DNA of 64,000 nucleotides, from assembly GCA_964016885.1 (NCBI GenBank), contig OZ024742.1, positions 52,452,001 through 52,516,000 on the forward strand, given 5' to 3'. Shown piece by piece: positions 1,814-3,305 of this stretch. The DNA comes from Eledone cirrhosa (taxonomy: Eukaryota). Under the pieces are notes generated by a model, which saw only the letters and a list, made by a program, of their open reading frames with translations, was not told the DNA's origin and made no database searches. The translations under genes were made by a program, and so were the position numbers. Numbering within the stretch: the first letter of the stretch is position 1; each line of letters opens with the position of its first letter.

Positions 1814-2599
1814 ATTGAGGTTAATAAATCTGATCACATTCAAGACAACAGTAAATGGTTTCGAATGCATATTTCTGCAGACCAGAAGGTGGATGATGAG
1901 GCTGAGCTGCAATAGCCTGTGGCTTATGTTAGAAATTTCCTGTGTGCACTTGTCTGATGATACAATATTTGTGTGTGTGTGTATGTGTGTGTGTGTGTAT
2001 GATATATGTATATTGATATATTTGTAAGATTCATATATACATACATAGATACATATAGATATATTCATTCATAAATATCTAGCTTTCTCTGATACACACA
2101 CACACAGACATACACACACATATGAATATATATATGTATGTATGTATATATATATATATATATATATATATATATATATATATATATATATATATACATA
2201 TATATACATATATATATATATATACATATATATATATATATATATATATATATATATATATATATATATATATATATACATATATATATATATATATATA
2301 TATATATAAACAAATAACGAAACGAAATTAAATTTCGTTTCGTTTGTAACTCACTTTTGTATGACTGACGCTTAAACAATTAAGTTAAAAATGTACATCT
2401 ACATATGCATACTGAAATACTAGTATGCATATGAATACACACACGTATACATATGTAGATGTAACAAGTCTTTCACTGGTTACTTTACTGTGAGTAACCC
2501 AGCTATTCTGTATGTAAACACACAGACAAACCGGTTTTTAGAGTCATACTGGTTTTCGAGGAAACACCTTTCCCCTATTCTCCAGAAAGCCAGACAAGG

Positions 2600-2644
2600 A
2601 ATATTGAACTAGTTTCGTTGTTGTTACAACTCATCAGCAATATT
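2600..2644 (-). ncRNA. Minimal type I hammerhead ribozyme
   Basis: Minus strand AATATTG-CTGATGA-GTTGT(AACA)ACAAC-GAAA-CTAG-TT^CAATATT: 7-bp stem I, canonical core, palindromic ACTAGT stem III, GUU site. Confidence 0.9.
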
Positions 2645-3067
2645 TACCTATCTACCGGCCTTTCTGGAGAATCGTAAAAGCAAATATCTTTATATGTTAT
2701 TTCTATAAAAATTAGTCAGTGGGCAGACTAATTTGCATAGAGTGTGAGTACGCACCGGTTCAGCGGAGACGATAAAAACAAATAACGAAACGAAATTAAA
2801 TTTCGTTTCGTTTGTAACTCACTTTTGTATGACTGACGCTTAAACAATTAAGTTAAAAATGTACATCTACATATGCATACTGAAATACTAGTATGCATAT
2901 GAATACACACACGTATACATATGTAGATGTAACAAGTCTTTCACTGGTTACTTTACTGTGAGTAACCCAGCTATTCTGTATGTAAACACACAGACAAACC
3001 GGTTTTTAGAGTCATACTGGTTTTCGAGGAAACACCTTTCCTCTATTCTCCAGAAAGCCAGACAAGG

Positions 3068-3112
3068 AATATTGAACTAGTTTCGTTGTTGTTACAACTC
3101 ATCAGCAATATT
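3068..3112 (-). ncRNA. Minimal type I hammerhead ribozyme (second tandem copy)
   Basis: Identical to 2600-2644, 468 nt away. Confidence 0.9.
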
Positions 3113-3305
3113 TACCTATCTACCGGCCTTTCTGGAGAATCGTAAAAGCACATATCGTTATATGCTTTTTAAAAATAGAAAAGAGAGTATGTATATATAT
3201 ATTTATATATATATATATATATATATATATATATATATATATATATATATATATATATATATATACATACTCTCTTTTCTATTTTTATCACAGGACCGGT
3301 TGAGT

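Follow-up and report, generated by a model that had tools for sequence, protein, structure and literature searches.

The window analysed here is a 64-kb stretch of AT-rich eukaryotic DNA, in which tandem repeats account for 114 rows, the majority of them (TA)n or (TG)n, and no tRNA gene was found. Between two of its (TA)n tracts lies an insert of 862 nt on the minus strand (2309-3170), which offset self-comparison resolved into about 1.84 head-to-tail copies of a 468-nt unit. The coordinates of its parts and flanks are collected in Table 1.

Table 1. Parts of the insert and its immediate flanks, in window coordinates
Feature	Position	Strand	Remarks
(TA)n tract	2126..2308	.	joined to the 3′ end of the element; putative priming site of reverse transcription
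3′ terminal hairpin, 13-14 bp, with short U-rich tail	2309..2344	-	candidate recognition end for the mobilising enzyme
Long internal hairpin	2394..2463 (also 2862-2931)	-	from fold and palindrome analysis
Downstream type I hammerhead, extended stem I	2577..2672	-	core 2631-2637 and 2613-2616; stem II 2617-2630
Downstream hammerhead palindrome	2608-2613	-	predicted cut between 2607 and 2606
Predicted monomer	2607..3074	-	468 nt between the two predicted cuts, putatively released; ends close a stem of about 29 pairs
Divergent patch	2683..2707	-	clustered substitutions in the downstream copy; they damage a hairpin that is intact at 3144-3169
Upstream type I hammerhead, extended stem I	3045..3140	-	core 3099-3105 and 3081-3084; palindrome 3076-3081
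Upstream hammerhead cut	between 3075 and 3074	-	predicted
11-bp hairpin	3144..3169	-	5′ end of the insert stops at its far side
118-bp palindrome	3170..3287	.	centred in the second (TA)n tract; 59-nt arms, 98% complementary, about 21 non-TA bases per arm

The tandem insert and its surroundings

At an offset of 468, positions 2308-2682 and 2776-3150 differ at one of 375 sites (position 2574), and the match continues to 2702/3170 with four extra mismatches, at 2683, 2689, 2697 and 2699. The original prediction, made from the letters of the window, had placed a near-identical tandem at 2308..3166 with this same offset. The offset and the near-identity hold, and the extent is corrected to 2309-3170, since the repeat match reaches 2702/3170; the same right end is given by a joint between family members, 3170->2718. 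Because only 1 of 375 positions differs between the copies, we regard the insertion as young, which is also how their high identity had first been read. The unit has a GC content of 35%, and its longest ATG-initiated open reading frame, followed round the circle, has 22 codons, in keeping with the earlier description of a monomer that encodes nothing. A blastn comparison of the insert with the 64-kb window returned no other match with E < 0.04.

The mismatches at the far end of the repeat are clustered (4 of 20 positions versus 1 of 375; Fisher p 2e-05, with the boundary set post hoc), and a fifth substitution, at 2707, was judged against the letters of the family joint. A circle copied twice would give identical copies, so plain re-copying of one circle fails at 2683-2699, and these mismatches do not fit such copying without a template switch or a later patch. 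Any of three events could explain them: copying of the last 20 bases from a different molecule after a template switch, error-prone passage through the hairpin, or a later repair patch. In sequencing run X1, contig depth at 2690-2706 was 12.9 against a summed depth of up to 6.8e5 elsewhere, but depth does not measure how many copies there are, and at 2690-2702 contigs of the family type are placed on 3158-3170 instead.

We infer that the two (TA)n tracts are halves of one target and that the 118-bp palindrome is a fold-back, inverted duplication of the flank made during repair. No target-site duplication is readable at this locus, where both ends lie in (TA)n and the flank duplication is inverted rather than direct.

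Traces of other mobile elements are spread over the window. Decayed reverse transcriptase and GIY-YIG frames at 10770-12728, 12938-13573, 14046-15086, 33660-34283, 37933-38430 and 38524-40364 carry RWK or RWR, DKT and CxCX5C motifs. These frames, with 9479-9961 included, belong to several decayed Penelope-like elements with Hydra-clade motifs, and those at 37933-38430 (minus strand) and 38524-40364 (plus strand) form an inverted arrangement. Craig et al. 2021 (PMC8557442) describe RWK, DKT and CxCX5C as motifs of the Hydra clade, in which almost all families insert into (TA)n and hammerheads are canonical. Pfam assigned no family to 9 of 11 window proteins submitted, including all eight Penelope-like fragments among them, and a solved-structure search gave no match. 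No sequence link was found between the unit and eight local element flanks, the best two comparisons being equalled by 2 of 100 shuffles and the others by 11-96. Rfam detected no hammerhead in the Hydra-like region 9400-15300. One Hydra-like remnant in that region holds in its 3′ tail, some 40 bases ahead of a (TA)n tract, a possible decayed hammerhead with a U3-A8 core variant, weak stems and no Rfam match (13953-13991, plus strand).

Several further features stand apart from the insert. A non-coding, MITE-like palindrome at 1171-1281 (52-nt arms, 92%; 7-nt loop) adjoins a microsatellite, and translated frames suggest a half related to it near 56480-56600. A LINE-type reverse transcriptase frame occupies 19467-20960 on the minus strand (RVT_1, E 1.5e-27, with DUF6451). 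The transposase remnant at 32364-33374 on the same strand, whose HTH_32 match falls below the cut-off, is one that we take to be mariner-like. A 137-nt tandem repeat is present three times at 61164-61580 (92% matches).

Hammerhead motifs and predicted folds

Both minus-strand copies carry CUGAUGA, GAAA, the palindrome ACUAGU, U17 and a 7-bp stem I, so that the canonical core, stem and palindrome first described for each copy are all present twice. Stem II is likewise the same in both, with 4 bp (GUUG/CAAC), a canonical G10.1-C11.1 pair and a 6-nt loop. The core pattern has two matches in the 64-kb window and none in 100 shuffles. Cleavage had been placed at GUU^C, at 2607 and 3075; these two positions are indeed U17, and the bond predicted to be cut is the one just 3′ of each on the RNA (3075/3074 and 2607/2606).

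At gathering scores, no Rfam family was reached anywhere in the window. Hammerhead_HH9 matches both copies below its cut-off of 52 (38.6 bits, E 4.3e-08), and the unit shares with it the placement of the stem I bulge and the 6-nt loop II. Rfam microRNA, snoRNA and sRNA matches lay far below their cut-offs and reflect AT-rich hairpins, and a weak descriptor-scan match at 36300, with a 29-nt helix III region, was taken as chance. Pattern scans of metagenome contigs and of viral contigs gave 0 matches each.

As defined by Cervera and de la Pena 2014 (PMC4209133), the canonical metazoan type I hammerhead has a helix I of about 6 bp, a helix II of 4 bp and a helix III of 1-2 bp with a small palindromic loop, and the min-HHR has a helix II of 7-8 bp, a helix I of 4-5 bp and an extra unpaired base after A9. 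Because the motifs here combine a 7-bp helix I, a 4-bp helix II and a short palindromic helix III with no extra base after A9, we assign them to the canonical metazoan type with a weak helix III and drop the term "minimal" that the original prediction had used.

The predicted monomer folds at -154.9 kcal/mol as a linear molecule (z -11.7; 0 of 100 shuffles as good) and at -150.6 kcal/mol as a circle (z -9.6; 60 shuffles), which agrees with the highly structured monomer proposed earlier. The further hairpins named in that proposal were borne out by arm complementarity: 14 of 14 positions pair in 2316-2329/2331-2344, 95% in 2394-2412/2445-2463 and 13 of 13 in 2577-2589/2660-2672. In the circular fold, stems I and II have predicted pair probabilities of 0.66-0.99 and helix III one of 0.0, the latter in part an effect of the folding program, which does not allow loops of 2 nt. 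In silico, the monomer is thus highly self-paired yet leaves the hammerhead free to fold, a feature of retrozymes.

A nested double-hammerhead fold of the 862-nt transcript was computed at -295.8 kcal/mol versus -302.4 kcal/mol for the free minimum. With this modelled cost of 6.6 kcal/mol the fold is feasible, which does not make it active. During transcription, the local 29-pair stem I would be the first to form, and the dimer could be reached only by exchanging it. Of nine predicted Xenopus dimers assayed in vitro in a 2026 preprint by Li, Clavereau and Pollet (10.64898/2026.07.22.740005), only one cleaved.

The family in sequencing reads

Sampled words of the unit are contained in 20 run rows from 17 studies, with no RNA run among them, a blank that carries no information on expression. 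The evidence given here comes from three of these rows, X1 (organism A, possibly the window's source sample), X5 (organism B) and X7 (organism D), and from the RAD run X21 (organism A), all DNA-type or unlabelled and compared over 2690-3187; the other 17 rows, with the 8 small-share ones among them, form no part of it. X1 yielded 1128 unit contigs, 559 of them at an identity of at least 99% and 345, 181 and 43 in the bands that follow; X5 yielded 36 contigs, X7 eight, and X21 3434 of 12.5 million reads. The head-to-tail joint 3170->2718 was found in X1 and X5. An X5 contig has the unit ending at 2772 and running into (TA)n, a few bases off the register of the window's own 3′ end, and in X7 family pieces are joined to unrelated flanks at 2946, 3138 and 2792/2825.

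The unit is a polymorphic multi-copy family, both tandem and dispersed. Dispersed copies had been expected from the outset; family copies occur in X1, X5, X7 and X21, with foreign flanks in X5 and X7. A single-locus duplication, the case that the original prediction had set against itself, is excluded by the polymorphic multi-copy family, the head-to-tail joints, the (TA)n-joined 3′ end under another organism label and a reciprocal pair of transversions in stem II. The expectation that copies would be variably permuted fared less well, as both observed (TA)n-joined 3′ ends lie within a few bases of each other.

Unit pieces listed for B and D are about 96-100% identical to the window over 2718-3170, among them one of 155 nt with a single difference and one of 221 nt with four differences and a gap. 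Its occurrence under these labels may mean that B and D are closely related organisms, that they received the unit horizontally, or that their samples contained DNA of the host. Pile-ups of read ends in X21 at 2730, 2797, 2799, 2849 and 3138 were considered as insertion breakpoints and rejected. Four of the five fall on AATT and the remaining one lies a single base from it, so we read them as RAD restriction ends; AATT is presumably the site of the enzyme used for that library.

Changes within the family were compared with the predicted structure. In stem II, a U-A pair becomes A-U through changes at 3086 and 3097, which together make a reciprocal transversion pair. In X5 both changes have the same depth (30.8) and fall within the span of one listed piece; in X21 they are present in 403/553 and 409/578 reads (about 70%), counts that point to their co-occurrence on single molecules. 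Position 17 varies from U to C in family reads (3075), a change that the ribozyme tolerates. Among the 40 of 76 variant rows listed, 24 are supported by contigs: 8 of these fall at unpaired positions, 9 leave pairing intact, 3 compensate for another change and 4 disrupt a pair. Within these 24 rows, 4 of 16 changes at paired positions are thus disruptive (p 0.07 versus random transitions), and none of the 40 lies in CUGAUGA or GAAA, where few would be expected anyway. Row 3157, which maps onto the divergent patch, was left out, and the helix III change at 3078 was not counted as covariation because it belongs to a clustered T-to-C set. Family-wide conservation of structure is no more than suggested.

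That clustered set comes from X21 over 2950-3080, where T-to-C changes correspond to A-to-G on the ribozyme strand. Each of 3003-3007, 3015, 3021 and 3022 is changed in 111-112 reads, which for the majority of these sites differ at 13 or more further positions each, and further T-to-C changes lie at 2983 (208 reads) and 2952-2954 (68 reads). T-to-C places outnumber A-to-G places in X21 (27 versus 13; p 0.010), and X1 has no such excess (7 versus 8). Among the 14 listed A-to-G sites, 13 are preceded by A or U and one by G (p 0.011; the sites are not independent); depletion of an upstream G is the signature of ADAR (PMC2873906).

The clusters are possibly ADAR-edited RNA written back into DNA. 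In the monomer fold, 10 of the 14 sites have no partner or lie away from long duplexes (of 16 rows, 10 are unpaired), so such editing would need a sense-antisense duplex. The clustered reads start at one to three places and may derive from one RAD locus or from copies of one molecule. Their sampling is biased, since the restriction site seems to have been created by the clustered changes themselves, and the changes are nearly absent from the X1, X5 and X7 contigs.

Origin of the insert and relation to known elements

The observed combination of repeat, two ribozyme motifs, family, (TA)n junctions and fold-back flank likely marks the insert as a young member of a non-coding, multi-copy tandem family whose 468-nt units each hold an intact type I hammerhead. 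It would be a non-autonomous non-LTR retrozyme, whose predicted minus-strand RNA would be self-cut, circularised and reverse-transcribed into (TA)n by a Penelope-like element. As to the predicted minus-strand RNA circles, we lean towards their existence.

Such a copy would begin with read-through transcription of two units. Cutting would proceed through the double hammerhead, since a single copy is unable to close helix III (ACUAGU), which pairs instead with its counterpart in the second copy, and ligation may fall to a host RtcB-type ligase, by analogy with the elements of Cervera and de la Pena 2020 (PMC7229834). A GIY-YIG endonuclease would then nick (TA)n, and target-primed reverse transcription would start from the U-rich tail behind the 3′ hairpin, run for more than one unit and stop at the 3144-3169 hairpin. 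Fold-back of the flank would finally repair the 5′ junction.

The mobiliser of animal retrozymes is given as unknown in PMC7761336, a 2020 review that also describes the repeats as showing no motif that names a partner. The (TA)n target alone cannot name one either, because Naiad and Neptune elements likewise favour microsatellites (PMC8557442). A 3′ end that stays fixed on (TA)n, in the neighbourhood of Hydra-type elements, offers a concrete candidate, and a Hydra-clade element is the best one at hand, a call on which we are evenly divided.

An improbable alternative is that the insert is the 5′-truncated end of an autonomous Penelope-like element with a tandem terminal repeat, in which case the unit would not be an independent replicon and any circle would be a by-product. 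Penelope-like elements bear hammerheads in terminal repeats and are mostly 5′-truncated, and the Hydra ones have canonical hammerheads and target (TA)n (2026 preprint; PMC8557442; PMC4209133). The layout can be read as a 399-nt repeat, a 69-nt body and a 394-nt repeat, and inverted structures on the 5′ side are typical of these elements (PMC8557442). However, no open reading frame adjoins the insert at this locus, the unit resembles none of eight stretches of the local Hydra remnants, and the X1 ends at 3170 and 2718 continue with the next unit rather than with other sequence (among the 6 loose ends and 3 between-letter joints listed, with 113 loose-end rows left out).

That the array is instead a DNA-level satellite or minisatellite from an old Penelope terminus, its hammerhead a passenger with no RNA step now, seems very unlikely: local tandem amplification of element termini is proposed in the 2026 preprint (10.64898/2026.07.22.740005), where most of the predicted dimers tested failed to cleave, but the array here has only 1.84 units, lies in (TA)n at either end and carries a fold-back flank, its 3′ end is met again on (TA)n in X5, stem II holds a reciprocal transversion pair, and the strand-biased A-to-G clusters, if real, would need an RNA stage.

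Within the preferred reading of a non-autonomous retrozyme, a more far-reaching scenario is doubtful. In it, (TA)n-targeted retrozymes would be driven by Hydra-clade Penelope-like elements, and their RNA would be A-to-I hyper-edited by ADAR and written back as a strand-specific genomic fossil record, in a family shared at 96-100% identity between differently labelled organisms. We found no report of retrozyme editing by ADAR, nor of hyper-editing together with retrotransposition and Penelope, in a literature search that most subscription journals lay outside. One more retrozyme family matters little by itself, because the class is already known. The strand-specific A-to-G clusters in genomic reads, if true, would be direct evidence that genomic copies pass through RNA.

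Judged by its letters, the insert matches every metazoan non-LTR retrozyme feature tested, with cleavage, expression and circles as predictions. It shares with the described elements (PMC7229834; 2026 preprint) tandem non-coding units, a type I hammerhead in each, a GC content below 50%, a self-paired monomer and multiple copies. Its two consecutive units with complete motifs correspond, by sequence, to the preprint's working definition of an active element. The 468-nt unit is longer than the 170-400 nt of PMC7229834 and falls inside the 51-972 bp of the preprint, in which animal retrozymes are derived from Penelope-like termini. The described elements have a target-site duplication, when present, of more than 4 bp; in its place the insert has a 3′ end defined by its junction with (TA)n, and a flank that folds back.

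Among ribozymes, the closest likeness is to the axolotl HHR_Amex1 and newt satellite 2 type (PMC7229834), with the same very weak helix III and palindromic loop and the same predicted action as a dimer; the axolotl HHR_Amex1 type cleaves poorly alone and well as a dimer. This copy has U at position 17 where that type has C. Most invertebrate retrozymes, unlike the axolotl type, are described as cleaving efficiently as monomers (PMC7229834), and the host here, judging by the Hydra-type elements, is apparently an invertebrate. Type I topology, a palindromic helix III region and the predicted dimer requirement are shared with the min-HHR of Penelope-like elements (PMC4209133), but the 7-8-bp helix II, 4-5-bp helix I and extra base after A9 are absent. 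Hydra-clade Penelope-like elements (PMC8557442) have the same (TA)n insertion, canonical hammerheads and tandem and inverted structures; in contrast to them, the insert encodes nothing, and no resemblance between it and the local remnants could be detected. The best reading is that of a new retrozyme family within an already described class.
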